DNA of 64,000 nt from Candidatus Latescibacterota bacterium (GTDB taxonomy: Bacteria > Latescibacterota > UBA2968 > GCA-2709665): the NCBI GenBank assembly GCA_965219455.1, contig OZ244744.1, forward strand, positions 1,376,001-1,440,000. The letters run 5' to 3'. Below the pieces are notes generated by a model. It ran no database searches, was not told the origin of the DNA, and was given only the letters and a program-made list of their open reading frames with translations. This document shows, one piece after another, positions 39,332 to 64,000 of the stretch; the stretch's first letter is position 1, and each line of letters opens with the position of its first letter. The translations under genes and the position numbers were made by a program.

Positions 39332-39447
39332 GCAAAAACCGTCGGTTTCCCTGACCTGCCAGAGTCGAAAACCGACGGTTATCCAGGAAGGCGCGCAACC
39401 CTTTTGTCCCCTGGCACTATTGCGCCGTGAGACGGAATGCGGCCCTC
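39332..39447 (-). ncRNA. Putative sRNA, family 1, copy B (antisense to leader of surface-protein gene)
   Basis: Homologous to 708-823; terminator AACCGTCGG...CCGACGGTT + TTT. Confidence 0.65.
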
Positions 39448-39454
39448 ATTTTGA

Positions 39455-39483
39455 AATATAGAGAACCTGTCTCGTTTTGTCAA
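39455..39483 (-). promoter_or_regulatory. Sigma70-type promoter of sRNA copy B
   Basis: TTGACA (39483-39478), 17-bp spacer, TATATT (39460-39455). Confidence 0.75.
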
Positions 39484-39639
39484 ATGCCGCGATCCGGAAT
39501 CGAGCGCGTCGAGACGCGAACCGGATTATCGAATTCCTCGTCGCACCTGGCCGCGACGACGTCTTACCGCGGCGCCGGAACATCGTTGGCCTGTTGCGAG
39601 TTGGTCAAGACTGCCAATCGGAAGGGAAGGAAGGACATC

Positions 39640-44021: not shown

Positions 44022-44798
44022 ATGAACTACGTGCCGTCTTTTTGCATCGTCGCGTTCATGGGTCTGGCGTCCACCGTTGCCGCGGAACGGCAGCCGTTTG
44101 AGGGACGGGTCGTGAACGGGAAGTCCCTTCCAATCCATCGGGCGCGGGTCGTGCTTTACAGGCTCGACAATCCGCGCGCGCGGCTGACGACCATCACGGA
44201 CGAAAACGGCGCCTTCTCGCTGCCCCTGAGAGACCTCGCCCCGCCGCGACCCAACGCACTGCGGCAGAACCATCCCAATCCGTTCAATCCCTCCACCCTC
44301 ATACCCTTCGAGATCTCGGAGGGTGGACACGTTCGCCTGGACGTGTTCAACATTCTGGGCCAACGCGTGGTCACGCTGATCGACGAAGAGCGCCCGGCCG
44401 GGTTTCACAGGGTGCTGTGGGACGGCACGGACGCTGTCGGCCGGGGCGTGAGCGCGGGGGTTTACATCTACCGGCTCAGCACCGGGAACTGGCGCGACGC
44501 GCGGAAATTGATGCTGCTCGACGGCGCATCGGAGCGTTCGGGCGGTGGAGCCTCGAATTTCAGCGAAGAAAAGGCTCACGCGTTCGGCGTGAGGATCACC
44601 GGCGAGGGAATATTGCCGGAAACCTTCACCTGGACCCCCGGCATGGGGTCCCTGGTGGCGGAGGTGAGACGTATCGAAGACATCCTTCCGCCCGAGGTCG
44701 AGCACCCCGATACGGCGGCCAATCCCTTCTCGGGGACCAGCCTCGCCTCGATTATCCAGGTTGTTTCCGCGTACGGCGTCGACCCCGGCGGGGATTGA
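44022..44798 (+). CDS. Secreted protein with FlgD/T9SS-type domain
   Basis: GGAGG RBS, signal peptide, QNHPNPFNPSTLIPF...VFNILGQRV...WDGTD...GVYIYRL. Confidence 0.8.
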   Translation: MNYVPSFCIVAFMGLASTVAAERQPFEGRVVNGKSLPIHRARVVLYRLDNPRARLTTITDENGAFSLPLRDLAPPRPNALRQNHPNPFNPSTLIPFEISEGGHVRLDVFNILGQRVVTLIDEERPAGFHRVLWDGTDAVGRGVSAGVYIYRLSTGNWRDARKLMLLDGASERSGGGASNFSEEKAHAFGVRITGEGILPETFTWTPGMGSLVAEVRRIEDILPPEVEHPDTAANPFSGTSLASIIQVVSAYGVDPGGD

Positions 44799-45033
44799 GC
44801 CGGCCAAACCCATTCATCAAAGAAGCAAGATCACATGGCACATCGGAAATCGATCAAACCGGCATCGGCGGCGCTGGCCGGCCAGGATGGGGTGGTATTC
44901 GGCGCGGTCTGGCGCCAGGACTGACCGGGCAACTGTGGGAGAGGCCACCGCTGGCCCCAGGACCGAGGGCATCCTGCCTCGACATTGGCTCCTTGAGAAC
45001 CCCCCATTGCAATCCATGAAAGGGGACGTTGCC

Positions 45034-48000
45034 ATGGATTTGAAATCGACCGACGTCGACCGGAACGGGCCATCGCCCCGGGCACGACGATGCCTCGCCC
45101 TCGCCGCGGCCCTCTGCAGCGTCCTCTTCGCGGCCTCGCTTGTCATCGCGCCGCCGGCCTCTGCGCAAGACGTGACCATCTGGTCCGCCGACCTGGAGGT
45201 GAAAACCCTCAATGCCGCCCAGGACGAATTCGGTTGTTCCCACACTACCCCCTTTAATGGGCAGTGCGCCAACTCCAATGTTCTATCCGACGACGACTTC
45301 AGCTTGCACGGCAACCCATACACAATCACGAGGATCGAAGACGACGGCAGCGAGCTGGAACTGACTCTGGATACCGCCCTTCCCTCGAACGTGCTCGAGT
45401 TCCTGACCCTGAAAGTGGGCGATACCGAGCTGGCCTTTGAGGACGCCCGCGTCAGCTCCAGCAACAAGCGTTACACCTGGTCGTCCAGCCCCTCCTGGTC
45501 TTTGGGCGACGACGTGGACCTCAGCATCACGGACGCCAGCGGGCCGTCCCTGGTAACGAACACCTCCCTGGATGATAACGAAAGGAACCTCTTTGAAAAT
45601 GGCCATCGAAGTGCGCAAGCATTCACGGCCGGGACCTGGGCGCGGGTCACATTAATCGGAATCGGGATTGGAGATGAAGTCGATGACGACGTGGAGGTCA
45701 CATTGCACAAGGGCGGGGGAAGCAATCCCGGCGACAGACTGAAGAGGCTGTCGAACCCCTCGAGCATCACGGCGGATTTGGTCAACGTATTCACCGTTCC
45801 CGACGGCGGCATCGTGCTGGAGGCATCGAAAACGTACTTCGTGCAGGTCAAAACGACCTCGAGCGACAGGGTAGCCGTTTCCGTAACCGGACCCCTTTCG
45901 GGCGGCAACGCCGAAGACGACGGGGCCGCTGAGAATTGGACCATCGACAATGGTTCGTGGACAAACAGGCCTTCGATCGGTACATGGCAAGCAAGCAATC
46001 AGTCGATGCGAATCGACGTCAAGGGTGAGGTGCTCCTGGACCCGCCGACCAATCCGAGCGCTCGTGCAGTTGCGCCGATGCGGGTCACGCTCAGATGGGA
46101 CAGGACCTTACCGTCTCCAAAAGGCACAATCGATAGGGACGACGGCTACAAGATCGAATGGTCCGCCGATGGCAACGATCCGTGGACGTCGCTCGTGAAC
46201 GTCACGAACCAGTACGTGACCGATAGCGACATCTGGTGCACGTGCTACCCTACGCGATTCAACGACAACACCATCACGCCCGGGACCACGCGCCACTACC
46301 GGATCAAGGCGGTCGACGACGACGACGAGAGCGCCTGGTCCGACGTGGTCAGCGCCACCACGCCGGGGCTGGTGGATTCCGATCAGGGCCGGTTCGAATA
46401 CGGCGCGGTGGTTTCGGAATTCAACGCGCTCACCGATCAGAAGGTGTTCCGAATCGACTTGGATCCGGGCGAGAGCTATCGGTTCACCATCGCGGGGAAG
46501 GCGACCAGGCACCGGGTGATCGTGACCGACCCGGGCGGCACGGAGACCTGGAACGACGTGCTGGAAGCGAACAACACTCTCATACCGAGATTCACGACGC
46601 AGGGGGCCGGCGACCACCAGGTCAAGATCTCGCACGGCGGGAGTCCCGGACAATACACGAGCCTGAACGCGGGATGGTTCCAGTTCGTGCTCGTGCCGGA
46701 GCGCGATGATGAGTCGGAGTTTTCTCTTACTCCCCTCGAGGGCACGTTAGAACTATTGGTACTCAACACCTACGGCGACGTTGACCGCATCGGATTGCTG
46801 GTGCAGCCGGGCAAGGCGTATGCCGTCCGGGTCCGGGGTCGCGAGACGGATGAGGGCACCGCCGCGACGCCGCGGATCAAGCGCGCCATGCCGCCGGCGA
46901 CGACCCACGTGTACAACATGGGCAAGCCGTGGGTGGAGGGCGTGACCACTACCGAGGAATCGACCGTTACCTGTAAGACGACGAAACCGGGCGACAGCGA
47001 TAGGTGCCAGGAATTTCAGGCCTTCGTGATCGACCTGCGGGGGCAGACCGGCGCGCAGCAGACGTGGCACATCATCGTCGCCCCGACGGCGCGCCCCCGC
47101 ACCTATCCGTACCGTGTGGGCATCTACTCAGTACTTCTGGACGAGCTTTCGGCCAGCCAACTGGAGGGGGTGCGGATGCCGCTGAGGGGGTGGTTCGCGT
47201 CGCAGCCGTCGCAGCACGACGGGTCGAAGGCGATCAAGGTCCGGGTGGGGTTCAGCGATGCGGTCGACGAGAGCCCGGAGAACGTGGGCCGGCATGGTGT
47301 GAGCGTGGACGGCGGCGAAGTGACGTCGGTACGCCCGGTGGGCGGACAGGAGCAGGACGACGCGGCGGAGCGCAAGGGGACCCGCTCGGCAAGCGTTCGG
47401 CAAGACGAACAGGAAGACCGGGAGGTCGTGTGGGAGTTCGAGATCGAGCCGGACTCGGACGGTGACGTGACGGTGTCGCTGGAGGCGTGGCGCCCGTGCG
47501 GCGAGCCGGGCGCGATCTGCACCGCGGACGGACGGGTGCTGTCGGAGGGGATCTCGACGACGGTGCGGGGCCCGGCGGCGGATGAGCAAGAGCCTCAGGA
47601 ACAGGAACAGAAACCGCCGGATCAGGAGGAGGAAGAACAACCCCAGGAGCCAGGGCCGCCGGCGCTGACGGCGTCGTTCGAGGGCATGCCGGCGAAGCAC
47701 AAAGGCGAGGGCGGGTTCCGCTTCCGCGTCGCCTTCAGCGAAAACATCGGGATCAGCTTCCGGGCGCTGCGCGAGGACGCGTTCACGGTCAGCGGCGGGC
47801 GCGTGACGGGCGGAAAGCGGGTGGACGGCCGCCGCGACCTGTTCGCGATGACGGTGCGGCCGGTTTCGAACGGTGACGTGACCATCACGCTGCCGGCCGG
47901 GCGCGAGTGCTCGGTGTCCGGTGCGATCTGCACGAAGGGGGAGAACCGGCGCAAGCTGACCAACGCGCCCTCGGCCACGGTGCGGGGCCCGGCGGCAGAA

Positions 48001-48732
48001 ACGCAAGAGCCTCAGGAGCAGAAGCCTCAGGAGCAGAAGCCTCAGGAGCAGGAGGCGGCGGCAGCAGAGCAAGAGCCTCAGGAGCAGAAGCCTCAGGAGC
48101 AGGAGGAGGAAGAACAACCCCAAAAGCCGCCGCCGGCGCCGCGGAACCTGACGGGTGTCGCCAACGACGACGGCTCGGTGACCCTGAGCTGGGACGCCCC
48201 CGGCGATGACTCGGTAACCGGCTACCGGATCCTGCGGCGGCACACCGTCAAGCAGGCCCCGGGCGTGTTCTCCACGCTGGCGGCCAACACGGGCACGACC
48301 GCGACGACCTATACGGACGGCGTCGCGTCGCCGGAGACCCGCTACGCCTACCGGGTGAAGGCCGTGAACGCTGCCGGCGCCGGCAAGCGGTCCAACTACG
48401 TCAAGGTGACCACGAAGAGGGCCGACCCGGCGTCCAAGCCGGCGCTCGCGGACGGGCCGCCGGGCCTGGCGCCGAATGCGCCCAACCCCTTCAACGCCAG
48501 CACCCTCATTCCCTACCGGCTGGACGCGGACGGACCCGTGCGCCTGGAGATCTACAACCTCCTCGGGCAGCGCATACGCACACTGGTGAACGAGGTGCAG
48601 GCCGCGGGGGCCTACCGGGTGTCCTGGGACGCCCGCGACGCAGCGGGGCGGCGCATGTCCTCGGGGGTGTATTTCCTGCGCCTGCACTATCCGGGCGGCG
48701 TGCAGACGCGGAGGATGCTCTACCTGAAATAG
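45034..48732 (+). CDS. Large secreted FN3 protein with Q/E/P-rich linkers and C-terminal FlgD/T9SS-type domain
   Basis: ASA-Q signal, two FN3 domains, duplicated ...AICT domain, QEPQEQKP repeats, PNAPNPFN...GVYFLRL. Confidence 0.85.
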   Translation: MDLKSTDVDRNGPSPRARRCLALAAALCSVLFAASLVIAPPASAQDVTIWSADLEVKTLNAAQDEFGCSHTTPFNGQCANSNVLSDDDFSLHGNPYTITRIEDDGSELELTLDTALPSNVLEFLTLKVGDTELAFEDARVSSSNKRYTWSSSPSWSLGDDVDLSITDASGPSLVTNTSLDDNERNLFENGHRSAQAFTAGTWARVTLIGIGIGDEVDDDVEVTLHKGGGSNPGDRLKRLSNPSSITADLVNVFTVPDGGIVLEASKTYFVQVKTTSSDRVAVSVTGPLSGGNAEDDGAAENWTIDNGSWTNRPSIGTWQASNQSMRIDVKGEVLLDPPTNPSARAVAPMRVTLRWDRTLPSPKGTIDRDDGYKIEWSADGNDPWTSLVNVTNQYVTDSDIWCTCYPTRFNDNTITPGTTRHYRIKAVDDDDESAWSDVVSATTPGLVDSDQGRFEYGAVVSEFNALTDQKVFRIDLDPGESYRFTIAGKATRHRVIVTDPGGTETWNDVLEANNTLIPRFTTQGAGDHQVKISHGGSPGQYTSLNAGWFQFVLVPERDDESEFSLTPLEGTLELLVLNTYGDVDRIGLLVQPGKAYAVRVRGRETDEGTAATPRIKRAMPPATTHVYNMGKPWVEGVTTTEESTVTCKTTKPGDSDRCQEFQAFVIDLRGQTGAQQTWHIIVAPTARPRTYPYRVGIYSVLLDELSASQLEGVRMPLRGWFASQPSQHDGSKAIKVRVGFSDAVDESPENVGRHGVSVDGGEVTSVRPVGGQEQDDAAERKGTRSASVRQDEQEDREVVWEFEIEPDSDGDVTVSLEAWRPCGEPGAICTADGRVLSEGISTTVRGPAADEQEPQEQEQKPPDQEEEEQPQEPGPPALTASFEGMPAKHKGEGGFRFRVAFSENIGISFRALREDAFTVSGGRVTGGKRVDGRRDLFAMTVRPVSNGDVTITLPAGRECSVSGAICTKGENRRKLTNAPSATVRGPAAETQEPQEQKPQEQKPQEQEAAAAEQEPQEQKPQEQEEEEQPQKPPPAPRNLTGVANDDGSVTLSWDAPGDDSVTGYRILRRHTVKQAPGVFSTLAANTGTTATTYTDGVASPETRYAYRVKAVNAAGAGKRSNYVKVTTKRADPASKPALADGPPGLAPNAPNPFNASTLIPYRLDADGPVRLEIYNLLGQRIRTLVNEVQAAGAYRVSWDARDAAGRRMSSGVYFLRLHYPGGVQTRRMLYLK
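48003..48121 (+). repeat. Tandem 15-bp coding repeats (QKPQE)
   Basis: CCTCAGGAGCAGAAG units. Confidence 0.8.
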
Positions 48733-48830: not shown

Positions 48831-51800
48831 ATGCATTTGAAATCGACCCACCACCGGCCGGCCGGGCAACCGCTCCCGGCACAAATGCCCCCCCGATTTT
48901 TTCGGGGCCGCAACGGAGCCGCGGCGATGACTCGCGGCATCAGACCGGTCCGGCTGCCCCGGGTTTCTGCCCTCGTTGCGGTCGCCCGGGTGTCCGCCGC
49001 GGTGTTGTTCGTGCTCTTCGCCGCCCTTCCCGCCACGGCGCAACCTTCCGCACCGCAGGGCTTCGCGGCGTCGAACGGCAACGCGCAGGTGAAGCTCACC
49101 TGGGACGCGCCGGCGGAGGACGCGGACATCGCGCGCCACGAGTACCGGTTCAAGACCACCGGCGACTACCCCGCCGCGTGGACGGCAATCGAGGAAAGCG
49201 CGCCGGGCGGGCTCCACGAGGACTGGGTCGTGGTGACGGGCCTGACCAACGACGTGGCCTACACGTTCCAGTTGCGCACGGTGAACGCGGGCGGCGACGT
49301 CAGCACCGCGGCGGATGCGGGTCCGGCGACGCCGAGGTCCGGCGTCTGCGGCCGCACCGAGCAGGTGCGGGACGCGATCGTGGCTGCGATCGCCGGCGTG
49401 TCGGACTGCGCCGACGTGACGACGGCGGAATTGGCCGATGTGACTGTGCTGGATCTCAGGAGGACGGGCTTCAAGTCTCTGCAGCCGGGCGACTTCTCCG
49501 GCATGGCGGCGCTGACGACGCTCGATCTTGGTGGTTTCAACTATCTCAGTTCGCTTCCCGACGGCGTGTTCTCCGACCTGACGGCGCTGGAGTGGCTCGA
49601 TCTTGGTTCCAACGAGCTCACCTCGCTTCCCGCCGGCGTGTTCTCCGGCCTGACCGCGCTGGAGCAGCTCCTTATCAGCAACAACGAGCTCACCTCGCTT
49701 CCCGCCGGCGTGTTCTCCGGCCTGACGGCGCTGACGAGGCTGGAACTGCACAACAACGGTAGACCCGCTGCCGCTGACCGTGACGCTGGAGAGGAACCCG
49801 GATGCCGTCGAGATCCGCGCGGTGGTGCTGACCGCGGCGCCGTTCGCGGTGCCGCTGAGCGTGAGCGTGGAGAACGGCGGCCTCGCGGGCGGGGCGGCCA
49901 CGATCACGGTCCCGACCGGTGCACGGGAGAGCGCGTGGGTCGGCGTGACCCGCACGGCCGGCACGACCGGGGCGGTGACCGCGGACATCGACCTGACCAC
50001 CCAGCCGAGCCTGCCCACCAACAACGGCGGCTACGCCTTCGTCAAGTCCGCGAGCGACCTGCCGCTGACGGTCGAGCCCGCGACCGATCCGGTCTGGTCC
50101 ACGACCATGACGGCGGGTGACACTCCGGCGGGGCACGGCTACGACAGGACCGACCTCGACGCGCCCACGATCGGGGCGCTCGACGACGACAATTTCGATT
50201 ACGGGTCCTCTTCCTATGGGGTCCTTGCCCTCGACGTGGCGACGAATGTCGTCAGATTCGTCGTCGCCGAGTCCGGACTTCCGACGAATGAAATCCTGAC
50301 GCTGGAGCTCGGCGGGCACGCGCTCGCATTCTCGGATCGACACAACGTTATCAGCGGCCAAAGCCGATGGTATTGGACCGTTCCGGCCGCACTGGACGAT
50401 CTGGAGACCGAGTTTCCGGTCGGGAGCACGGCGACGGTGTGCCTGCGCACGGCGACGCAGGTGTGTCCGACGGGGAGCATCGTGACGCCCACGAACGCGG
50501 CGCCGGCGTTCAGCTCTTCGGCGACGTTCGACGCGGCGGAGAACCAGACGGCGGCCGGCACGGTGCTGGCGACGGACGGCGACACGGACGACGACGTCAC
50601 CGGCTACGCGATCACCGGCGGGGCGGATGAGGCGCTGTTCGAGATCGGGATGACGGACGGCGCCCTGACGTTCAAGACGGCGCCGAACTTCGAGGACGCC
50701 AAAGACCAGGGCACGAACAACACCTACGTGGTCGAGGTTACGGCGACCAGCGGCATGGGCACGCGGGAGAAGACGGCGACGCAGACGATCACGGTGACGG
50801 TCACGGACGTGAGCGGCGAGAAGCCGGCCGCGCCGGCCGCGCCGACGGTGGCGGCGGCCTCGGTGACCAGCCTGACGGTGAACTGGTCGGCGCCGTCCAA
50901 CGCGGGCCCGGCGATTACGGACTACGATTACCGCCACCGGACGACCTCGCCGCAGGGCACGTGGACGGAGGTGACCGGCACGGCGATCACGGGCACCGCG
51001 GCGACGATCGCGGGTCTGGCGGAGAACACGTCCTACGACGTGCAGGTGCGGGCGACCAACGACGAGGGCACCGGCGACTGGTCGGACGCGGGAACCGGCA
51101 CGACGGACGCCAACGCGGCGCCGGCGTTCAGCTCTTCGGCGACGTTCGACGCGGCGGAGAACCAGACCTCGGCGGGCACGGTGGTGGCGACCGACAGCGA
51201 TGCGGGCGACGACATCACGGGCTACGCGATCACCGGCGGGGCGGACCAGGCGCTGTTCGAGATCGGGATGACGGACGGCGCCCTGACGTTCAAGACGGCG
51301 CCGAACTACGAGGACGCCAAAGACCAGGGCACGAACAACACCTACGTGGTGACGGTCGAGGCGACCAGCGGCATGGGCGAGCGGGAGAAGACGGCGACGC
51401 AGACGATCACGGTGACGGTCACCGACGCGGCCGGGGAGGCGCCGGGCAAGCCGGACGCGCCGGACGTGGCGGCGGCCTCGGTGACCAGCCTGACGGTGAA
51501 CTGGTCGGCGCCGGCCAACGCCGGTCCGGCCATCACCGACTACGACGTGCAGTACCGGGAGGGCACGAGCGGCAGCTGGACGGACGGCGGCCACACCGGC
51601 ACCGCCACCACGGCGACGCTGTCGAGTCTGTCGGAGAACACGTCCTATCAGGTACAGGTGCGGGCCACCAACGACGAGGGCACCGGCTCGTGGTCGGACT
51701 CGGGCAGCGGCACGACGGACGCCAACGCGGCGCCGACGTTCACGTCTTCGGCGACGTTCGACGCGGCGGAGAACCAGACGGCAGCCGGCACGGTGAGGGC

Positions 51801-54800
51801 GACCGACGGCGACTCGGAGGACGACGTCACCGGCTACGCGATCACCGGCGGGGCGGATGAGGCGCTGTTCGAGATCGGGATGACGGACGGCGCCCTGACG
51901 TTCAAGACGGCGCCGAACTTCGAGGACGCCAAAGACCAGGGCACGAACAACACCTACGTGGTCGAGGTTACGGCGACCAGCGGCATGGGCGAGCGGGAGA
52001 AGACGGCGATGCAGACGATCACGGTGACGGTCACGGACGTGAGCGGCGAGAAGCCGGCCGCGCCGGCCGCGCCAACGGTGGCGGCCGCGTCGGTGACGAG
52101 CCTGACGGTGACGTGGACGAAGCCGGCCAACGCCGGTCCGGCCATCACCGACTACGACGTGCAGTACCGGGAGGGCACGAGCGGCAGCTGGACGGACGGC
52201 AACCACACCGGCGCCGACCTCACGGCGACGCTGTCGGGCCTGTCGGAGAACACGTCCTACCAGGTACAGGTGCGGGCGACCAACGACGAGGGTACGGGCT
52301 TGTGGTCGGCCTCGGGCACCGGCGCGACGGACGCCAACGCGGCGCCGTCGTTCAGCTCTTCGGCGACGTTCGACGCGGCGGAGAACCAGACCTCGGCGGG
52401 CACGGTGCTGGCGACGGACGGCGATTCGGATGATGACATCACGGGCTACGCGATCACCGGCGGGGCGGATGAGGCGCTGTTCGAGATCGGGATGACGGAC
52501 GGTGCCCTGACGTTCAAGACGGCGCCGAACTTCGAGGACGCCGAGGACCAGGGGACCGACAACACCTACGTCGTGACGGTGCAGGCGACGAGCGGCACGG
52601 GTGAGCGGGTGAAGACCGCCACGCAGACGATCACGGTGACGGTGACGGACGTGACCACGGAGGCGCCGGGCAAGCCGGACGCGCCGACGGTGTCGGCCGC
52701 CTCGGTGACGAGCCTGACGGTGACGTGGACGGCACCGGCCAACGCCGGTCCGGCCATCACCGACTACGACGTGCAGTACCGGGAGGGCACCACCGGCAAC
52801 TGGACGGACGGCAACCACAACGGCACCGCCACCACGGCGACGCTTTCGAGTCTGTCGGAGGGCACGTCGTACCAGGTGCAGGTGCGGGCGACCAACGACG
52901 AGGGCACGGGCGACTGGTCGGACTCGGGCAGCGGCACGACGGACGCCAACGCGTCGCCGACGTTCAGCTCGTCGGCGACGTTCGACGCGGCGGAGAACCA
53001 GACGGCGGCCGGCACAGTGCTGGCGACCGACGGCGACACGGACGACGACATCACCGGCTACGCGATCACCGGCGGGGCGGACCAGGCGTTCTTCTCGATC
53101 GTGCCGGCGACGGGCGCGCTGACCTTCAAGACGGCGCCGAACTTCGAGGACGCCAAAGACCAGGGCACGAACAACACCTACGTGGTCGAGGTGACGGCGA
53201 CCAGCGGCATGGGCGAGCGGGAGAAGACGGCGACGCAGACGATCACGGTGACGGTGACGGACGTGGCCGGCGAAGCGCCGGGCAAGCCGAATGCACCGGA
53301 CGTGGAGGCCGCGTCGGTGACGAGCCTGACGGTGACGTGGTCGGCGCCGGCCAACGCCGGCCCGGCAATCACCGACTACGACTATCGCTACCGGACGACC
53401 TCGCCGCAGGGCACGTGGACGGAGGTGACCGGCACGGCGATCACGGGGCTGTCGGCGACGATCGGGAGCCTGTCGGAGAACACGTCCTACGACGTGCAGG
53501 TGCGGGCGACCAACGCCGAGGGCACCGGCGACTGGTCGGACTCGGGAACCGGCGCGACGGACGCCAACGCGGCACCGTCGTTCACCTCGAATGCGGCGTT
53601 CGACGCGGCGGAGAACCAGACGGCGGCCGGCACGGTGGTGGCGACGGACAGCGATTCGGATGATGACATCACGGGCTACGCGATCACCGGCGGGGCGGAC
53701 CAGGCGTTCTTCTCGATCGTGCCGGCGACGGGCGCGCTGACCTTCAAGACGGCGCCGAACTTCGAGGACGCCAAAGACCAGGGCACGAACAACACCTACG
53801 TGGTCGAGGTGACGGCGACCAGCGGCGCGGGGACACGGGAGAAGACGGCGACGCAGACGATCACGGTGACGGTGACGGACGTGAACACCGAGGCGCCGGG
53901 CAAGCCGGCAGCGCCGACGGTGTCGGCGGCGGCGGCGACGAGCCTGAGCGTGAACTGGGCGGCGCCCGACAACGCGGGTCCGGCGATCACGGACTACGAC
54001 GTGCAGTACCGGGCAGGCACCAGCGGGGGCTGGAGCGATGGCAACCACAACGGCACGGCCACCACGGCGACGATCGGGAGCCTGTCGGAGAACACCTCCT
54101 ACCAGGTGCAGGTGCGGGCCAAGAACGCCGAGGGTACCGGCGACTGGTCGGCCTCGGGCAGCGGCACGACCGACGCCAACGCGGCGCCGTCGTTCAGCTC
54201 GTCGGCGACGTTCAGCGCGGCGGAGAACCAGACCACGGCGGGCACGGTGCGGGCGACGGACTCCGATGCGGATGACAGCATCACCGGCTACGCGATCACC
54301 GGCGGGGCGGACCAGGGTCGCTTCTCCATCGGGGCAACGTCGGGGGCGCTGACGTTCAACGATGCGCCCAACTTCGAGGCACCTTCGGACGCCAACACCG
54401 ACAACGACTACGTGGTGACCGTGCAGGCGACGAGCGGCACGGGGACGCGGGTAAAGACGGCGACGCAGACGATCACGGTGACGGTGACGGACGTGAACAC
54501 CGAGGCGCCGGGCAAGCCGGCAGCGCCGACGGTGGCGCCGGCGTCGGTGACGAGCCTGAGCGTGAACTGGGTGGCGCCGTCCAACGCCGGCCCGGCCATC
54601 ACCGACTACGACGTGCAGTACCGGGCGGGTACCAGCGGGGACTGGAGCGACGCGGGCCACAACGGCACCGCGGTCACGGCGACGATCGGGGGCCTGTCGG
54701 AGAACACCTCCTACCAGGTGCAGGTGCGGGCCAAGAACGCCGAGGGCACCGGCGACTGGTCGGACGCGGGCACCGGCGCGACGGGGCTAGCGCCGACCAA

Positions 54801-55440
54801 CAACCAGCCCAGCGAGATCAAGGCCTACTGGACCGATTCCGACACTAAAGGCAGCAACGTTCAGGAGGAATGCGACGGCACCGAGCCTTTCCGCGCCTTC
54901 TGGAATCCGCCGAAAAGCAACGGCAGCTTCAAGGTAGCCGACGAGTGGGAGGCTGAGATTACGCCCAAGAGCGGCGCCAGCAACGTGAGCTTCACCATAC
55001 AGAACACCGGCGGCAACCGTAGGGAACCCGAGCTGACCGGGACCGTCGAGATCGACGGCTTCAGCACGTTGAGCATGCGGGTCCGCGGGCGTTTCGGCGA
55101 CGACGGATGGGGCGCGTGGTCGCCGATAACAGGGTTGTTTTGCAGGACCTCGGCGTCCAAGAAGCCGCCGGGGCTCGCGCCGAATGCGCCCAACCCTTTC
55201 AACCCCAGCACCGTCATCTCCTATCGCCTGGACGTGGAAGGGCCGGTGCGCCTGGAGATCTACAACCTCCTCGGGCAGCGCATACGCGCACTGGTGGACG
55301 AGGTGCAGGCAGCCGGCGCCTACCAGGTGCAATGGGACGCCCGCGACGCGGCGGCGCGGCGCGTGTCATCGGGGGTGTATTTCATCCGCCTGCGCTATCC
55401 GGGCGGGGTGCAGACCCGGCGCATGCTCTACCTCGAGTAG
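48831..55440 (+). pseudogene. Giant FN3-LRR-(cadherin-FN3)x7-CTD surface protein, frameshifted near 49758
   Basis: ORFs 48831..50120 and 49780..55440 are collinear with paralog 55644; CAC AAC AAC G GTA GAC vs paralog GAA AAC ACC GTA GAC implies a 2-nt loss. Confidence 0.8.
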
Positions 55441-56216
55441 ACCCGGCATGGAGAACGCCGCCGCCCGCATCCTCTCGGCCGGAATCGAGCCGGCGGGCGG
55501 TCCTCAACCGGCCTTCATGATAGTAATGGAGAAGTTGCCATGCATTTGAAATCGACCGACCACCGGCCGGAACGGGCAATCGCCCCGGCACAAATGTTCA
55601 CCCCCCCCCCGGATTTTTTCGGGGCCGCGCCTGAGCGGCGGCCATGACTCGTGGCATCAGACCGGTCCGGCTGCCCCGGGTTTCTGCCCTCGTTGCGGTC
55701 GCCCGGGTGGTCGCCGCCGCGGTGCTGCTCGTGCTCTCCGCCGCCCTTCCCGCCACGGCGCTGCCCCCCAGGCCGACGGGTTTCGCCGTGTCGAACGGCA
55801 ACGGGCAGGTGACGCTCACCTGGGACGCGCCGGCGGAGGACGCGGATATCTGGCACCACGAGTACCGCTTCAAGACCACGGGCGACTACAACGACTGGAA
55901 GAAGATCGACGACAGCGAGGTGGGCAAGAGCCACGAGGACTGGGTCGTGGTGACGGGCCTGACCAACGACGTGGCCTACACGTTCCAGTTGCGCATAGTG
56001 AACAGAGACGGCAACGGCAACGAGGTGACGGCCAGTCAGGCGACGCCGACGGACGGCTTCTGCGGCCGCACCGAGCAGGTGCGGCTCGAGATCATGAGGC
56101 AGATCTCCGGCGTGTCGGACTGCGCCGTCGTCACGTCGGCGCAACTGGCCGGCGTGATGTCTCTGGATTTCGCCTCTGTTGTCATCAAGTCCCTGCAGCC
56201 GGGCGACTTCTCGGGC

Positions 56217-56972
56217 CTGACCGCGCTGACGGATCTCACTCTGAGCGGCAACGAGCTCAGTTTGCTTCCCGCCGGCGCGTTCTCCGGCCTGACCGCGCTG
56301 ACGGATCTCACTCTGAGCGACAACGAGCTCAGTTCGCTTCCCGCCGGCGCGTTCTCGGGCCTGACCGCGCTGACGGATCTCACTCTGAGCGACAACGAGC
56401 TCAGTTCGCTTCCCGTCGGCGCGTTCTCCGGCCTGACCGCGCTGAAAACGCTCAATCTGGACCGCAACGAGCTCCGTTCGCTTCCCGCCGGCGTGTTCTC
56501 CGGCCTGACCGCGCTGACGAATCTCGCTCTGGTCAGCAACGAGCTCCGTTCGCTTCCCGCTGGCGTGTTCTCCGACCTGACCGCGCTGACGGATCTCTCT
56601 CTCTTCCGCAACGAGCTCACCTCGCTTCCCGCTGGCGTGTTTTCCGACCTGACCGCGCTGACGACTCTCCGTCTGGAATCCAACGAGCTCAGTTCGCTTC
56701 CCGCCGGCGTGTTCTCCGACCTGACCGCGCTGACGTCGCTCCGTCTGCGTTACAACAAGCTCAGTTCGCTTCCCGCCGGTGTGTTCTCCCGCCTGACCGC
56801 GCTGACGACTCTCCGTCTGGGTTACAACGAGTTCACCTCGCTTCCCGCCGGTGTGTTCTCCCGCCTGACCGCGCTGACGAATCTCTCTCTGTTCGGCAAC
56901 AAGCTCAGTTCGCTTCCCGCCGGCGTGTTCTCCGACCTGACCGCGCTGACGGATCTCTATCTGCGCGAAAAC
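56217..56972 (+). repeat. Tandem 72-bp LRR-encoding repeats (10 full + 1 partial)
   Basis: CTGACCGCGCTG...CTTCCCGCCGGCGTGTTCTCC recurring every 72 bp. Confidence 0.95.
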
Positions 56973-59900
56973 ACCGTAGACCCGCTGCCGCTGACCGTGA
57001 CGCTGGAGAGGAACCCGGATGCCGTCGAGATCCGCGCGGTGGTGCTGACCGCGGCGCCGTTCGCGGTTCCGCTGGTCGTGAGCGTGGCGAACGGCAGCCT
57101 CGCGGGCGGGGCGGCCACGATCACGGTTCCGACCGGTGCGCGGGAGAGCGCGTGGGTCGGCGTGACCCGCACGGACGGCACGGCCGGGGCGGTGACCGCG
57201 GACATCGACCTGACCCCCCAGCCGATCCTGCCCGACAAACACGATGGCTATGAGTTCGTCAAGTCCGCGAGCGACCTGCCGCTGACGGTGCTGGACGTGC
57301 CGGGCGCGCCGGCTGCGCCGTCGGTGTCGGCCGCGTCGTCCTCCAGCCTGACGGTCATGTGGTCGGCGCCGGACGACGGGGGCTCGGCGATCACGGACTA
57401 CGACGTGCAATACCGGGCAGGCACCAGCGGCGACTGGACGGACGGGAACCACGCCGGCACGGCCACCACGGCGACGCTCACGGGCCTTTCGGCGAGCACG
57501 TCCTATCAGGTGCAGGTGCGGGCGACCAACGCCGACGGCGCCGGCTCGTGGTCGGACTCGGGCAGCGGCAGGACGGAGGACGCCAACGCGGCCCCGACGT
57601 TCAGCTCACCGGCGACGTTTGACGCGGCGGAGAACCAGACCTCGGCGGGCGAGGTGGTGGCGACCGACAGCGATGCGGACGACGACATCACGGGCTACGC
57701 GATCACCGGCGGCGCGGACCAGAGTTTCTTCTCGATCGGGGCGACGTCCGGGGATCTGACGTTCGACGCGGCACCGAACTACGAGGACGCGCAGGACCAG
57801 GGCACCAACAACACCTACGTGGTCGAGGTGCAGGCGACCAGCGGCGCGGGCGAGCGGGAGAAGACGGCGACGCAGACGATCACGGTGACGGTGACGGACG
57901 TGAACACGGAGGCGCCGGGCAAGCCGGGCGCGCCGACGGTGACGACCGCGTCGGTGTCGAGACTGAGGGTGAACTGGTCGGCGCCGGCCAACGCGGGCCC
58001 GGCGATCACCGACTACGACTACCGCTACCGGGCGGGCAACAGCGGGGGCTGGACGGACGGCGGCCACGCCGGCACGGCGGTCACGGCGACGCTGACGGGC
58101 CTTTCGGAGGACACGTCGTACCAGGTGCAGGTGCGGGCCACGAACGCCGAGGGCACCGGCGCCTGGTCGGCCTCGGGCAGCGGCAGGACGGACGCCAACG
58201 CGGCACCGGCGTTCACATCGGATGCAGAGTTCGACGCAGCGGAGAACCAGACCACGGCGGGCACGATGCGGGCGACCGACTCCGATGCGGATGACGACGT
58301 CACGGGCTACGCGATCACGGGCGGGGCGGACCAGGGGTTCTTCTCCATCGGGGCGACGTCCGGGGCACTTACGTTCAACGATGCGCCCAACTTCGAGGAC
58401 GCGCAGGACCAGGGCAGCAACAACACCTACGTGGTGGAGGTTACGGCGACCAGCGGCGAGGGCGAGCGGGAGAAGACGGCGACGCAGACGATCACGGTGA
58501 CGGTGACGGACGTGAGCGGCGAGGCGCCGGGCAAGCCGGGCGCGCCGATGGTGGCGCCGGCGTCGGTGTCGAGCCTTTCGGTGAACTGGTCGGCGCCGTC
58601 CAACGCGGGTCCGGCGATCACCGACTACGACGTGCAGTACCGGGCGGGCACCAGCGGGGGCTGGAGCGACGGCACCCACAGCGGCACCGCGGTCACGACG
58701 ACGCTGACGGGCCTTTCGGAGAACACCTCCTACCAGGTGCAGGTGCGGGCCACCAACGCCGAGGGCACCGGCGACTGGTCGGAGTCGGGCAGCGGCGTGA
58801 CGGACGCCAACGCGGCGCCGTCGTTCAGCTCACCGGCGACGTTCGACGCGGCGGAGAACCAGACGGCGGCGGGCACGGTAGAGGCGACGGACTCCGACGC
58901 GGGCGACGACGTCACGGGCTACGCGATCACCGGCGGGGCGGACCAGGCGTTCTTCTCCATCGGGACGATGACGGACGGCGCCCTGACGTTCAACGATGCG
59001 CCCAACTTCGAGGACGCGCAGGACCAGGGCAGCAACAACACCTACGTGGTGGAGGTTACGGCGACCAGCGGCATGGGCGAGCGGGAGAAGACGGCGACGC
59101 AGACGATCACGGTGACGGTGACGGACGTGAACACCGAGGCGCCGGGCAAGCCGAATGCGCCGACGGTGTCGCCGGCGTCGGTGTCGAGCCTTTCGGTGAA
59201 CTGGTCGGCGCCGTCCAACGCGGGTCCGGCCATCACCGACTACGACGTGCAGTACCGGGCAGGCACCAGCGGGGCCTGGAGCGACGGCACCCACAACGGC
59301 ACCGCCATCACGGCGACGCTGACGGGCCTGTCGGAGAACACCTCCTACCAGGTGCAGGTGCGGGCCACGAACGACGAGGGCACGGGCTCGTGGTCGGAGT
59401 CGGGCTCGGGCCGCACGGACGCCAACGCGGCGCCGTCGTTCAGCTCCGCGGCGACGTTTAGCGCGGCGGAGAACCAGACGGCGGCCGGCACGGTGCTGGC
59501 GACGGACAGCGATGGGGATGACGACGTCACGGGCTACGCGATCACCGGCGGCGCGGACCAGGCGTTCTTCTCCATCGTGCCGGCGTCCGGGGCGCTGACG
59601 TTCAAGACGGCGCCGAACTTCGAGGACGCCAAAGACCAGGGGACCAACAACACCTACGTGGTGACGGTTCAGGCGACGAGCGGCATGGGGGAGCGGGTCA
59701 AGACGGCGACGCAGACGATCACGGTGACGGTGACGGACGTGAACACCGAGGCGCCGGGCAAGCCGGGCGCGCCGATGGTGGCGCCGGCGTCGGTGTCGAG
59801 ACTGACGGTGAACTGGTCGGTGCCGGCCAACGCGGGTCCGGCCATCACCGACTACGACGTGCAGTACCGGGAGGGCACGGGCGGCAGCTGGACGGACGGC

Positions 59901-61939
59901 AACCACACCGGCGCCGCCACCACGGCGACGATCGGGAGCCTGTCGGAGAACACGTCCTACGACGTGCAGGTGCGGGCGACCAACGCCGAGGGCACCGGCG
60001 CGTGGTCGGACGCGGGCACCGGCGCGACGGACGCCAACGCGGCCCCGTCGTTCAGCTCCGCGGCGACGTTCAGCGCGGCGGAGAACCAGACCACGGTGGG
60101 CACGGTGGTGGCGGCGGACTCCGATGCGGATGACAGCATCACCGGCTACGCGCTCAGTGGCGGGGCGGACCGGGATTTCTTCTCGATCGTGGCGGCGTCG
60201 GGGGCACTTACGTTCCAGTCGGCGCCGAACTTCGAGGACGCCAAGGACCTTGTGAGTGTCGATCCGGCCAATGCCGCCGGCAACAACCAGTACGTGGTGG
60301 AGGTTACGGCAACCAGCGGCATGGGGGAGCGGGAGAAGACGGCGACGCAGACGATCATGGTGAGAGTGACCGACTTGGACACCGAGGCCCCGGGCAAGCC
60401 GGGCGCGCCGACGGTGTCGGCGGCGTCGGTGTCGAGCCTGACGGTGACGTGGACGGCGCCGTCCAACGCGGGTCCGGCGATCACCGACTACGACTACCGC
60501 CACCGGACGACCTCGCCGGAGGGCACCTGGACGGAGGTGACCGGCACGACGATTACGGGGCTGTCGGCGACGATCGGGAGCCTGGAAGAGAACACGTCCT
60601 ACGACGTGCAGGTGCGGGCCAAGAACGACGAGGGCGCCGGCGACTGGTCGGACGCGGGCACCGGCGCGACGGACGCCAACGCGGCGCCGATGTTCAGCTC
60701 GGATGCGACGTTCATCGCGGCGGAGAACCAGACCACGGCGGGCACGGTGCTGGCGACCGACTCCGATGCGGATGACGACGTCACGGGCTACGCGATCACG
60801 GGCGGGGCGGACCAGGGGTTCTTCTCCATCGGGGCGACGTCCGGGGCGCTGACGTTCAACGATGCGCCCAACTTCGAGGACGCCAAGGACCAGGGCACCA
60901 ACAACACCTACGTGGTGGAGGTTACGGCGACCAGCGGCATGGGCGAGCGGGAGAAGACGGCGACGCAGACGATCACGGTGACGGTGACGGACGTGAGCGG
61001 CGAGGCGCCGGGCAAGCCGGGCGCGCCGATGGTGGCGCCGGCGTCGGTGTCGAGACTGACGGTGAACTGGTCGGTGCCGGCCAACGCGGGTCCGGCGATC
61101 ACCGACTACGACGTGCAGTACCGGGCGGGCACCAGCGGGGCCTGGAGCGACGGCACCCACAACGGCACCGCGGTCACGACGACGCTGACGGGCCTTTCGG
61201 AGAACACCTCCTACCAGGTGCAGGTGCGGGCCACCAACGCCGAGGGCACCGGCGACTGGTCGGAGTCGGGCAGCGGCGTGACGGACGCCAACGCGGCGCC
61301 GTCGTTCAGCTCACCGGCGACGTTCGACGCGGCGGAGAACCAGACGGCGGCCGGCACGGTGCTGGCGACGGACAGCGATGGGGATGACGACGTCACGGGC
61401 TACGCGATCACCGGCGGCGCGGACCAGGCGTTCTTCTCCATCGTGCCGGCGTCCGGGGCGCTGACGTTCAAGACGGCGCCGAACTTCGAGGACGCCAAAG
61501 ACCAGGGGACCAACAACACCTACGTGGTGACGGTTCAGGCGACGAGCGGCATGGGGGAGCGGGTCAAGACGGCGACGCAGACGATCACGGTGACGGTGAC
61601 GGACGTGAACACCGAGGCGCCGGGCAAGCCGGCAGCGCCGACGGTGTCGCCGGCGTCGGTGACGAGCCTGACGGTGACGTGGACGGCGCCGTCCAACGCG
61701 GGTCCGGCCATCACCGACTACGACGTGCAGTACCGGGCAGGCACCAGCGGGGCCTGGAGCGACGGCACCCACAACGGCACCGCCATCACGGCGACGCTGA
61801 CGGGCCTGTCGGAGAACACCTCCTACCAGGTGCAGGTGCGGGCCACGAACGACGAGGGCACGGGCTCGTGGTCGGAGTCGGGCTCGGGCCGCACGGACGC
61901 CAACGCGGCGCCGTCGTTCAGCTCCGCGGCGACGTTTAG

Positions 61940-63826
61940 CCTCTAATTAAGCGGGTTTTTTGAGATTTTTATGTACAAAAGTACCGGAAAGACTTATCTT
62001 AGTTGGAGTTAGAAGTATCAGACAGTCTGTTGATACACCAACGAAGGGGGTCTTTCCGGTGAAGAGAATATCGGTAAAAGAAAGCCGCAGGAACAGTGTT
62101 AATTGTGGGCGCAAGGTACGTACTCGGCAAAAGCTTGGCGGTCGTTTTTGTGCACAAGGCAAGCCGATGTTTGGCAGCACCTATGTGCATTACGAGGTCA
62201 GCGCGCAAGCAGCAGCGATGAGCTGCGGTGGCATTGCGGCCGTGCATCGTCTGGTGACCAAATTGGGATTGGTCGAAGAGATAGACGAGAAGTTGAAGTT
62301 GTTGAAGGTTCATCTGCCGTATCATGAGTCGGATCACGTGTTGAACCTTGCCTACAACGTGATGTGCGGTGGCACGCGTCTGGAAGACATCGAGCGTTTG
62401 CGGCACGACGAGGCCTACATGAATGCGTTGAACGCGAAGCTGATCCCGGACCCGACGACTGCGGGCGACTTTACGCGTCGCTTCACGGAAGCTGACGTGA
62501 TCGGGCTGATGGACTGCATTAACGCGGTACGGTCTAAGTTGTGGCGCACGCGGGCCGCCAGTTTGCTTTCTTCGGTAGCGTACATCGACGTGGATGGCAC
62601 AAGCGCCCCAACGTATGGGGAGAAGAAGGGCGGCATGGACATCTCCTACAAGGGCGTGTGGGGGTATGCGCCCCTGATCGTATCGTTGGCCAATACCAAA
62701 GAGGTGCTGTATATCGTCAACCGTCCGGGCAACGCGTCTTCTCACCAGGGGGCCGCCCCCTGGATCGATGCGTCCATCCGGGTGGTGAAGCCCCACGCCA
62801 AGCGCGTGTGCCTACGCGGCGACACGGACTTTTCGCTTACGGCTCACCTCGATCGCTGGGCAAAGGACGTCGATTTCATCTTCGGGATGGACTGCAATGA
62901 CGCCTTACGAACACGGGCCAAGGCCCTTGACGAAGCCAACTGGCAGCGCCTGCACCGACCTCACGCGCCCCAGAAAAGGCAGCGGCGCGACAATGAGAAG
63001 CAGCGTATCGTCAAGGCGCGGGGCTACCTCAAGCTGGCGCTGAACTTCGAAGACGTGGCCGAGTTTGACTACCAGCCCGGCAAGTGCAAACGCCCCTACC
63101 GCGTTGTGGCGCTGCGAAAAAACATCAGTAAGGCCAAAGGTGAGCAGACCCTCTTCGACGAAATCCGCTATTTCTTCTACATCACCACGCGCGACGACCT
63201 GACGCCCGCCGAGGTCGTCTTTGCTGCCAACAAACGATGCGACCAGGAAAACGTCATCGAACAGCTCAAGAACGGCGTCAATGCCCTGCGCGTGCCCTTG
63301 TATGACTTGATCAGCAACTGGGCCTACATGGTCATCGCCGCGCTGGCCTGGAACATCAAGGCGTGGTTTGCCTTGATGATGCATCGAAAAAAACACCGCC
63401 GACACTATATCCGTATGGACTTCCGGACCTTCCTCTCACACATCATCCTTTTTCCCTGTCGTGTCGTGCGACACGCCCGAAGCACCACCGTGCGCATCAT
63501 CGGCTATCAGCCGTCACTGAATAGACTCTTGAGCGCCTGGGCTACCATCGAACGCACCGGCTTCACATGACACCCGCACGAACCGTCATCACATACCACG
63601 GGATCCACGACGCCCACGGCGACGTAACGGACAAATACGCCTACACCACAACCAGACACCAACAACACACCCCTAACGCTGCGCTTTACCACACCAACTT
63701 ACACTCCACAAACCTCAAAACGACCTCCCGCGCACCTCAATAGACAACACACATACGTCATTCAACCACAACGTCGCACAAATCTGCAATTCTGTTCACC
63801 AAACACCAATACTCGCTTATTTTAGG
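61940..63826 (+). mobile_element. IS1380-family insertion sequence (1887 bp)
   Basis: Ends CCTCTAATTAAGCGGGT / CCTAAAATAAGCGAGT (CC...GG); 5-bp TSD TTTAG at 61935-61939 and 63827-63831. Confidence 0.93.
62059..63570 (+). CDS. IS1380-family DDE transposase
   Basis: PDPTTAGDF, IDVDGT, YAPL, RPGN, LRGDTDF, RCDQENVIEQLK; GTG start inferred. Confidence 0.93.
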   Translation: MKRISVKESRRNSVNCGRKVRTRQKLGGRFCAQGKPMFGSTYVHYEVSAQAAAMSCGGIAAVHRLVTKLGLVEEIDEKLKLLKVHLPYHESDHVLNLAYNVMCGGTRLEDIERLRHDEAYMNALNAKLIPDPTTAGDFTRRFTEADVIGLMDCINAVRSKLWRTRAASLLSSVAYIDVDGTSAPTYGEKKGGMDISYKGVWGYAPLIVSLANTKEVLYIVNRPGNASSHQGAAPWIDASIRVVKPHAKRVCLRGDTDFSLTAHLDRWAKDVDFIFGMDCNDALRTRAKALDEANWQRLHRPHAPQKRQRRDNEKQRIVKARGYLKLALNFEDVAEFDYQPGKCKRPYRVVALRKNISKAKGEQTLFDEIRYFFYITTRDDLTPAEVVFAANKRCDQENVIEQLKNGVNALRVPLYDLISNWAYMVIAALAWNIKAWFALMMHRKKHRRHYIRMDFRTFLSHIILFPCRVVRHARSTTVRIIGYQPSLNRLLSAWATIERTGFT

Positions 63827-64000
63827 TTTAGCGCGGCGGAGAACCAGACGGCGGCCGGCACGGTGCTGGCGACGGACAGCGATGGGGATGACGACGTCAC
63901 GGGCTACGCGATCACCGGCGGCGCGGACCAGGCGTTCTTCTCCATCGTGCCGGCGTCCGGGGCGCTGACGTTCAAGACGGCGCCGAACTTCGAGGACGCC

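Follow-up and report, generated by a model that had tools for sequence, protein, structure and literature searches.

What keeps most of a repeated gene segment almost identical while a few of its codons change from one repeat to the next? The question is raised by a 64,000-nucleotide stretch of a Candidatus Latescibacterota chromosome (contig OZ244744.1, positions 1,376,001 to 1,440,000; hereafter the window), in which a giant surface-protein gene carries a tandem array of leucine-rich repeats (LRRs). An earlier note on this stretch had described variable codons set in a constant framework, and had proposed strong diversifying selection or targeted mutagenesis as their cause. Our analysis suggests that the array is probably the ligand-binding LRR domain of a giant adhesin-like protein, which has been diversified by duplication of repeats and short-patch exchange between them and has been shared horizontally. 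Diversifying selection for new binding specificities is a plausible part of this reading, and both it and the adhesin role are inferred.

A constant repeat framework with variable codons in fixed columns

The LTAL motif recurs every 24 amino acids from position 56217 onwards, giving 11 units in register with all ten spacings exactly 24 codons. At 56208..56957 Tandem Repeats Finder (TRF) reports 10.4 copies of a 72-nucleotide period, with 87% matches. The array contains the framework pattern 11 times, and a paralogous gene lying upstream contains it twice, with two mismatches, against 0.00 occurrences expected from 100 shuffles. Mean pairwise identity of the units is 84% at the nucleotide level and 73% at the amino acid level. 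The elements of the array are as follows.

56217..57008, + strand: LRR array of 10 full 72-nt units and a half-diverged C-terminal eleventh unit (LTALTDLYLRENTVDPLPLTVTLE), delimited by codon register, TRF and per-column tables
56232..56249, + strand: variable block of unit 1, columns 6-11 (GAT CTC ACT CTG AGC GGC), recurring every 72 nt

The interval considered by the earlier note, 56217..56972, falls inside this array. The codon of column c in unit u lies at 56217+72(u-1)+3(c-1); columns 6, 8, 10 and 11 are hypervariable and columns 5, 13, 15 and 24 semi-variable. At column 8 the eleven units read ACT, ACT, ACT, AAT, GCT, TCT, CGT, CGT, CGT, TCT and TAT, all of them ending in T, and at column 11 they read GGC, GAC, GAC, CGC, AGC, CGC, TCC, TAC, TAC, GGC and GAA, of which ten end in C. 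Both series agree exactly with those listed in the earlier note.

The codons of the focal gene outside the LRRs have a GC content at third positions (GC3) of 94.7% and a T content of 3.6%; ACT is used for one of 259 threonines, GCT for one of 272 alanines and TCT for one of 168 serines. The T-ending codons of column 8 therefore run against the codon bias of the gene, while the C-ending codons of column 11 are uninformative because the same bias predicts them. An invariable T in a GC3-rich gene, as the earlier note had put it, is thus correct in its counts and its setting, but the variable codons are not alone in having it. Most units have a T-ending codon at columns 6, 15 and 17 too (8, 8 and 10 of 10 units), and in 53 units from seven related arrays the third-base diversity is 0.00-0.11 in most framework columns. 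In these 53 units each of the leucine columns holds its own codon (CTG, CTG, CTC, CTG, CTC and CTT). A special conservation of the T of column 8 was considered and rejected, third bases being as frozen in most framework columns. The constant T is therefore better understood as a sign that the whole unit is of recent common origin or has been homogenised, and not as the trace of a mechanism that leaves the third base alone.

The first two bases of the variable codons behave differently. In the same 53 units, the diversity at bases 1 and 2 is 0.69 and 0.70 in column 8 and 0.72 and 0.68 in column 11, as compared to 0.11 and 0.07 at base 3. Among the 10 full units of the focal array, 245 of the 513 pairwise base differences (48%) fall in 8 of the 72 sites (11%), namely bases 1-2 of columns 6, 8, 10 and 11. 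The mean proportion of nonsynonymous differences (pN) between units is 0.61 at these four columns, whereas the framework has a pN of 0.033 and a proportion of synonymous differences (pS) of 0.084, in agreement with the previous remark that framework codons barely change. None of the framework adenines (in ACC, AAC, GAG and AGT) varies among the 10 full units, while G, C and T positions of the x codons vary. The 72-nt unit as a whole is therefore young or homogenised, and just the first two bases of the x codons are diversified.

Class and predicted structure of the repeats

The array belongs to the typical class of LRRs. It is matched by Pfam LRR_8 (2.3e-59, six stretches) and LRR_4 (2e-25), and has a 24-residue period with the consensus LxxLxLxxNxLxxLPxGxFxxL and one predicted beta-strand per unit. 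Matches in the PDB are typical-class LRR ectodomains, the best being LRRTM (5a5c, 6.3e-71), followed by LRRC15 (3e-63), ALS, LGR4 and the variable lymphocyte receptor VLR-A (2o6q, 5e-44). In a single-sequence AlphaFold2 (AF2) model, with a mean predicted local distance difference test score (pLDDT) of 61.9 and values of 70-88 in the array, each unit has a strand on columns 3-10 (E63-70, E87-94, etc.). In LRR proteins the core leucines (columns 4, 7 and 9) alternate with outward-pointing residues (columns 6, 8 and 10), an assignment that follows from the established architecture and not from the coordinates of this model. The x residues of LxxLxLxxN lie in the predicted strand, which together with the match to VLR-A is consistent with the earlier proposal that the variable codons occupy the concave face of a module like the 24-residue unit of VLRs.

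Near-identical arrays in distant Latescibacterota

Among the species-representative genomes scanned, colinear arrays were found in two other complete Candidatus Latescibacterota chromosomes, G041 (OZ244561.1, locus L028) and G042 (OZ244619.1, locus L029). They consist of 9+1 and 7+1 units respectively, as compared to 10+1 in the window. Unit order and most of the variable residues match one to one among the three arrays, which have in common the column 10-11 residue pairs SG, SD, DR, VS, FR, ES, RY, G?, ?G and RE (? marking a residue that differs between copies). The window array has one extra copy of unit 2/3, and the G042 copy is without the first three units.

The LRR and flank DNA of the window is 94% identical to that of G041 and 96% to that of G042, whereas RpoB of the window's genome (G000) is 67.5% identical to the protein of G041 and 68.5% to that of G042 (94% within the window's genus). 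Since a core protein at about 68% identity stands against LRR DNA at 94-96%, the array has been shared horizontally and recently. When the post-LRR flank was searched in 52 other genomes of the window's own order (E <= 1e-20), it was matched in G015 alone, at 72% identity. Further blocks are common to G000 and G042: positions 78137-80677 in window-equivalent coordinates, which continue the window numbering past 64,000 (1454137-1456677 of the contig), are 92% identical to 5734801-5737341 of G042, and 41415..42545 of the window is 86% identical in DNA to 5748198-5749334. These additional matches to G042 suggest that the shared material is a multi-gene cluster; no such similarity to these two blocks was seen in G041. 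A second pair of arrays is formed by L017 of G015, a genome from the same family as the window's, and L036 of G041. They belong to the same framework family and are 89-99% identical in nucleotides for five unit pairs, and as these arrays are also shared unit by unit, exchange of adhesin modules appears to be recurrent.

At the protein level, a search with a 385-aa query found one close relative among 291 proteins, P0121, a 611-aa protein from another assembly (on a contig of 319,821 nt) which is 98% identical to the window protein. A whole-protein search (region 140-520) gave 2,135 proteins at E <= 1e-30 among 7,999 scored, of which the best 120 are multi-array giants with 34-70% identity, so that close orthologs did not come to light among them. 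An exact scan of metagenome contigs with 33 nt from the conserved array end gave no matches.

Two local changes were seen in the relatives. In G042 (L029:4244-4387) an open reading frame (ORF) of 47 codons with a lipoprotein-like signal (…LLAAC GDK…) stands in place of the FN3 domain and LRR units 1-3. This ORF meets the array exactly at a unit boundary but is read in a different frame, and upstream of this point the LRR frame contains stop codons. The arrangement amounts to the exchange of a module at the edge of a repeat, perhaps with a later frame error. In unit 10 (L028:4135-4206 and L029:4816-4887) the otherwise invariant framework asparagine codon of column 12, AAC in the window, is changed to ACC (Thr) in G041 and to GCC (Ala) in G042, which is a rare change of an asparagine-ladder residue.

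Copying and mutation between copies

Substitution rates (dN, nonsynonymous; dS, synonymous) were calculated for orthologous units by the Nei-Gojobori method. Between the window and L028, dN is 0.233 at columns 6, 8, 10 and 11, with a framework dS of 0.028 and dN of 0.017; for L029 the corresponding values are 0.28, 0.035 and 0.013. The excess is significant both for L028 (Fisher p = 1.5e-5) and for L029 (p = 5.6e-5), and dS in the flanks is 0.013-0.079. Counted as whole codons, 12 of 40 variable against 9 of 151 framework codons differ for L028, and 10 of 32 against 6 of 119 for L029. P0121 differs from the window protein at 6 of 340 aligned residues, of which 4 are among the 24 hypervariable positions, 1 among the 22 semi-variable and 1 among the 294 elsewhere (Fisher p = 1.2e-4). 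The variable columns thus turn over rapidly between copies that are otherwise nearly the same. The earlier note had proposed a comparison of dN/dS across the LRR units and had held that a lack of excess nonsynonymous change, together with a lack of population-level variation, would count against its reading; an excess at the variable columns is what we find. The raw dN/dS at the four columns, about 8 in ortholog units, is confounded by unit-to-unit copying.

With three genomes, 29 derived codon changes could be polarised, and 20 of them equal the codon found in the matching column of another unit within the same array. For changes of two or three bases the proportion with such an in-array donor is 8 of 10, with a chance probability of 3e-7 under random codons and of 0.0016 if a 30% chance match is allowed. 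Examples are TCG>GAT in unit 11, AAA ACG>ACG GAT in unit 3 of L028 (five of six bases), and TTT..AAT>ACT..CGT in unit 7, which makes this unit identical to unit 9 across columns 5-9. Derived synonymous changes recur in the adjacent unit: units 5 and 6 both have GCT, and units 8 and 9 both have GGT. Semi-variable columns toggle between a few states two bases apart, such as AGT/ACC at column 15. Since derived codons mostly pre-exist in other units, short-patch exchange between units is indicated, and the targeted mutagenesis suggested previously is not borne out. Copying does not account for all changes: five of the nine without a donor fall in the four hypervariable columns, as compared to 1.5 expected (p = 0.009).

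Variation in the environment was also sought in metagenomes. Six runs in three studies contained 34-40% of the sampled words, and four of these were mapped; the resulting unitigs were 83-248 nt long and none spanned the array. Variant letters were seen in x codons (e.g. 56518-56533), in unitigs not assignable to a gene or organism, and 84-192 pieces per run fit two places.

Search for a diversity-generating retroelement or a cassette bank

Codons of the NNT and NNC type at binding-site positions resemble the products of a diversity-generating retroelement (DGR), in which a reverse transcriptase (RT) is involved. The G000 genome has 16 matches to RVT_1, none of them in the window, where the earlier note had likewise seen neither an RT nor a template repeat. 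About a dozen (12 of 16) are near-identical, scattered RT frames of 458-466 aa of the group II intron type (e.g. 1947106-1948497, 4658810-4660186 and 3598896-3600296), and one is a broken copy of this type at 2847381-2848387. Another is a fused frame of 1,008 aa at 5172129-5175155 (+), which combines RVT_1 (1.5e-7) with a C-terminal carbon-nitrogen hydrolase (nitrilase)-like region and could be a defence-type RT.

A single RT is of the DGR type. It is 400 aa long (G000:C1:5559045-5560247, - strand), lies about 4.1 Mb from the window and contains an IGNLTSQ motif, which we take to be typical of DGR RTs. An AAC-rich template of 121 nt (5558925-5559045) lies directly downstream of it. At least four variable regions are found in a paralogous gene cluster at 5.54-5.59 Mb (5560699-5560819, 5565142-5565262, about 5544993-5545113 and 5588224-5588344) and are C-type-lectin-like. 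Their mismatches fall at template adenines in 19 of 20 cases for the best, VR1, and in 14 of 21, 16 of 21 and 14 of 23 cases for the others. The element at 5558925-5560819 with its variable regions thus looks complete and functional.

This DGR template was also compared with the LRR array and was rejected as its source, as the two agree at 45% of non-A positions; shuffled sequence gives 47% on average, and the true target of the template 99%. When the array was used to search all of the G000 DNA, the only matches were the paralog upstream (80%) and five weak LRR hits (66-71%), from which we conclude that G000 has neither a template repeat nor a silent bank of LRR cassettes for it. A DGR is therefore excluded as the source of the LRR variability. 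The doubt about a simple DGR expressed in the earlier note was well founded: the search for an RT and template that it had proposed yields one DGR with a template unrelated to the array, and the framework adenines do not vary.

Proposed origin of the variability and alternatives

The following sequence of events would account for the array. One 72-nt unit would have been tandemly duplicated, the unusual T-ending codons of the founder being retained in its descendants. Amino acid diversity is confined to the outward x residues of LxxLxLxxN (columns 5, 6, 8, 10 and 11), which would form the concave binding face. Short-patch recombination between units, by gene conversion, template switching or unequal exchange, would be the main process that keeps this diversity moving, by copying variable codons from one unit to another, and occasional new point mutations would add to the copied diversity. 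The gene, or at least its LRR end, has moved recently between distant Latescibacterota.

It is conceivable that no selection is involved. The x residues might be simply unconstrained in an old array in which concerted evolution erases all other differences, several of the copies being drifting pseudogenes. We consider such a history unlikely, but several observations speak for it or weigh against our own reading. The focal gene is split by an insertion sequence (IS; described below), the paralog upstream has a frameshift, the copy in G042 is cut short by its 5' replacement and out of frame, and dN/dS in the flanks is 0.6-1.4; some copies may thus be under decay and not under selection. Units have evidently exchanged sequence, and because copying is visible only where units already differ, it inflates dN between orthologs without any selection; the presence of a donor is, in turn, not proof of copying. 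Changes without a donor comprise 5 nonsynonymous per about 74 sites and 4 synonymous per about 140, a 2.5-fold ratio which is not significantly above 1 (Fisher p = 0.28). The pair L017/L036 shows the same direction without significance (6 of 20 variable against 9 of 80 framework codons differ), and 4 of the 10 base differences in its variable codons are at third positions. Moreover, the truly orthologous set consists of three DNA arrays and one protein. Against a neutral history stands above all the contrast between bases 1-2 (diversity about 0.7) and base 3 (0.11 and 0.07) at columns 8 and 11: a free codon would drift at its third base too, and this is the best remaining argument for selection since neutral decay would not give it. 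Strong GC3 pressure should also have turned the T of column 8 into C. All three genomes have the same synonymous markers of particular units (in the 'FR' unit CTC at column 9, in the 'RY' unit GGT at column 20), and homogenisation since their split has therefore been slight. The same pattern of variability is seen in the uninterrupted G041 copy. The strong diversifying selection of the earlier note thus agrees with the excess at the variable columns, but goes beyond what the donor-less changes allow and is better kept as a plausible reading.

Targeted hypermutation, either by a DGR acting on adenines of AAY codons or by another mutator acting on the NN of CTC-NNT-CTG, is to us the least credible of the accounts. 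NNT and NNC are the footprint expected of AAT and AAC template codons, and G000 does encode an active-looking DGR, but its template fits the LRR at chance level, G000 has no template copy of the array and the framework adenines are untouched in all 10 units. Mass mutagenesis would randomise the variable residues, whereas these are mostly kept unit by unit across genomes, and the changes that did occur reuse existing codons. The array is also N-terminal and not a C-terminal lectin or Ig fold. An artefact, finally, would require that the cluster is a chimeric insertion in the assembled chromosome, or that repeat collapse or polishing made mosaic units. The genome is a single-contig metagenome-assembled genome with 8.5% marker contamination, the adhesin gene cluster has a GC content of 68-71% against 58% for the genome and contains an IS, and the frameshifts of the paralog and of G042 are of a kind that may arise as long-read assembly errors. 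However, three independent assemblies and a fourth contig (that of P0121) have colinear arrays with identical unit order, and their copies are 94-98% identical and not 100%. Repeat collapse would delete units and would not generate site-specific codon variety, and the chance of an artefact appears very slight.

A bolder version of the duplication and exchange reading, which we put forward as a speculation with the odds well against it, is that the LRR binding face of a giant adhesin moving horizontally between lineages is retuned when variable blocks of 6-20 nt are copied, as templated micro-exchanges, among near-identical units and among paralogous arrays. This would be a bacterial counterpart of the logic of fungal NLR and lamprey VLR proteins; NNY codons at the key position would make changes at bases 1 and 2 stop-proof. 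Latescibacterota lineages might use the resulting repertoire to recognise cells, prey, hosts or particles.

Comparison with known systems

The array is a further case of highly conserved repeats with hypervariable contact sites, here in the LRRs of a probable adhesin of the type IX secretion system (T9SS) type. Such repeats are best described in fungal nucleotide-binding oligomerization domain-like receptors (NLRs). According to two reports, by Paoletti et al. in 2007 and Dyrka et al. in 2014, NLR repeats with high internal conservation (WD repeats of Podospora HNWD/het-d and het-e; ANK and TPR repeats) consist of reshuffled near-identical units under concerted evolution, with about four hypervariable surface codons per unit and polymorphic repeat number (PMC1805685, PMC4986451). 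A preprint notes the same regime in bacterial NLRs, with their WD and TPR repeats (bioRxiv 10.1101/2020.01.06.895854).

The focal units share with the fungal repeats their near-identical DNA, about four hypervariable codons on the binding surface, exchange within and between loci (20 of 29 changes with in-array donors, and a 39-nt half-unit identical in a paralog) and varying unit number (10+1, 9+1 and 7+1). They differ in their LRR fold, in being secreted or surface-bound, bacterial and horizontally mobile, and in the absence of repeat-induced point mutation. Against the fungal criterion of at least 85% unit identity, the focal units come close in nucleotides (84% between units, 87% matches to the TRF consensus) and fall short in amino acids (73%).

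In lampreys, a deaminase-linked somatic process builds VLR genes from germline cassettes, hundreds of which flank the gene. The focal array resembles VLRs in its 24-residue typical LRR class, in variability on the concave beta-sheet and in the copying of short LRR segments. In contrast to VLRs, the focal gene is complete, its own genome is without a cassette bank, and the variation seen is between genomes and not within an individual.

LRR adhesins of the T9SS in Bacteroidota, such as BspA of Tannerella forsythia and InlJ of Porphyromonas gingivalis, combine LRRs with Ig-like or cadherin-like repeats and a C-terminal sorting domain and are presumed to be adhesive. The focal protein similarly pairs LRRs with cadherin repeats and a T9SS sorting domain. 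It differs from BspA in LRR class (Pfam LRR_5 at 6.7e-23 against LRR_8 at 2.3e-59), phylum, much larger size and near-identical repeats. With DGR targets the array has in common the NNY codons at binding-site positions, and G000 has a functional-looking DGR; it departs from them in having no template, fixed framework adenines, an N-terminal LRR fold and unit-wise conservation. Xanthomonas transcription activator-like (TAL) effector repeats are near-identical in tandem, have one or two hypervariable specificity codons and evolve by repeat recombination. However, these 34-residue helical, DNA-binding repeats, which are injected into plant cells, have no sequence or fold relation to the focal LRRs.

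In an open-access literature search, no report of hypervariable LRR arrays in Latescibacterota or in T9SS adhesins was found. Latescibacterota are uncultured and their giant surface proteins uncharacterised. The locus provides a concrete case in which the predicted binding face of an otherwise fixed LRR domain changes from one near-identical copy to the next, and in which one module is common to lineages whose core genes are only about two-thirds identical. It also points to residues for mutation or swapping in binding studies. As a DGR-like NNY pattern can come from repeat duplication and exchange alone, some caution is advisable in automated screens for DGRs and hypervariability.

The split gene and its neighbourhood

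The features of the focal gene and of the surrounding cluster are as follows.

55644..61946, + strand: 5' part of the giant surface-protein gene, 2,100 codons, from ORF and Pfam
56049..56216, + strand: LRR N-terminal cap with two cysteines and a degenerate first repeat ending in ...SLQPGDFSG, from the translation
57009..57299, + strand: post-LRR domain (RNPDAVEIRAVVLTAAPF...), fold not recognised, the best-conserved part across genomes
61925..63831, + strand: IS1380-family insertion splitting the focal gene, from transposase profiles and the homology break
61960..63570, + strand: IS1380 transposase ORF, NF033539 transpos_IS1380 at 308 bits (cut-off 180) and Pfam DDE_Tnp_1_4 at 2e-38
63832..64000, + strand: start of the 3' part of the split gene, its frame continuing past the window to window-equivalent 68137
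48831..55440, + strand: upstream paralog with FN3, about 4 LRR units, FN3/cadherin repeats and a C-terminal sorting-like tail, from ORFs and Pfam
44761..48732: neighbouring similar gene
39427..43707: neighbouring similar gene with its own LRR array

The 5' ORF encodes, in this order, an N-terminal hydrophobic signal-like segment, an FN3-like domain, the LRR domain and alternating FN3 and cadherin domains (Pfam fn3 2.6e-119 in nine stretches, LRR_8 as above and Cadherin 3.3e-49 in seven). The putative signal peptide, MTRGIRPVRLPRVSALVAVARVVAAAVLLVLSAALPATA, was judged by eye from the sequence and not with a predictor. The LRR N-terminal cap is likewise kept in L028, and the AF2 model places cap helices at model residues 13-22 and 34-38, before the first strand, with low pLDDT (40-60). 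The post-LRR domain has a dS of 0.013-0.031 against L029 and L028 in its first 180 codons; the Pfam scan lists no domain in 57009..57299, and the single-sequence model leaves it unresolved (pLDDT <50).

The IS1380 element sits in a cadherin/FN3 repeat, and the stop of the focal ORF precedes the transposase gene by 14 nt. The match to the uninterrupted G041 gene ends at 61924 and restarts at 63832, the gap in G041 being just 15 nt. The 3' part of about 1,440 codons encodes further FN3 and cadherin domains (Pfam fn3 5.2e-81, Cadherin 8.4e-41, FlgD_ig 4e-06) and, at its end, a T9SS type A sorting domain (TIGR04183 Por_Secre_tail, 31.6 bits, cut-off 23), so that in G000 the insertion parts the LRR-bearing 2,100 codons from the piece with the sorting domain. 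From the break and restart of homology to G041 and the domains of the 3' part, the original gene would have had about 3,500 codons. The intact protein would have comprised a signal sequence, FN3, 11 typical-class LRRs, roughly 15 FN3-cadherin pairs and the sorting domain. The best match of G000 to the PorU sortase profile NF033707 scores 213 bits, with additional 72 and 23 bits, in one frame of 1,953 aa (cut-off 420).

The upstream paralog is 69% identical in amino acids to focal residues 1-275. It is frameshifted: its LRR part lies in the ORF 48831..50120 and its FN3/cadherin part in the ORF 49780..55440, which overlap at 49780..50120. The frame changes in the last LRR unit (within 49722..49800, near 49755..49760), where AAC GGT AGA CCC stands against AAC ACC GTA GAC CCG in the focal gene (-2 nt), as would be seen in either a pseudogene or an assembly error. 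The C-terminal half of this last unit, with the 39 nt AAC GAG CTC ACC TCG CTT CCC GCC GGC GTG TTC TCC GGC, is identical in every base to units of the L028 array, which belongs to the focal family. One more similar gene follows directly past the window end.

Elsewhere in G000, two other homogeneous LRR arrays lie at 686940-688058 (72-nt period, 15.5 copies, 84% matches) and 3773578-3774668 (66-nt period, 16.4 copies, 83% matches). In the latter, identical units occur in blocks and a few columns vary, and the style of the focal array is thus seen again in this genome.

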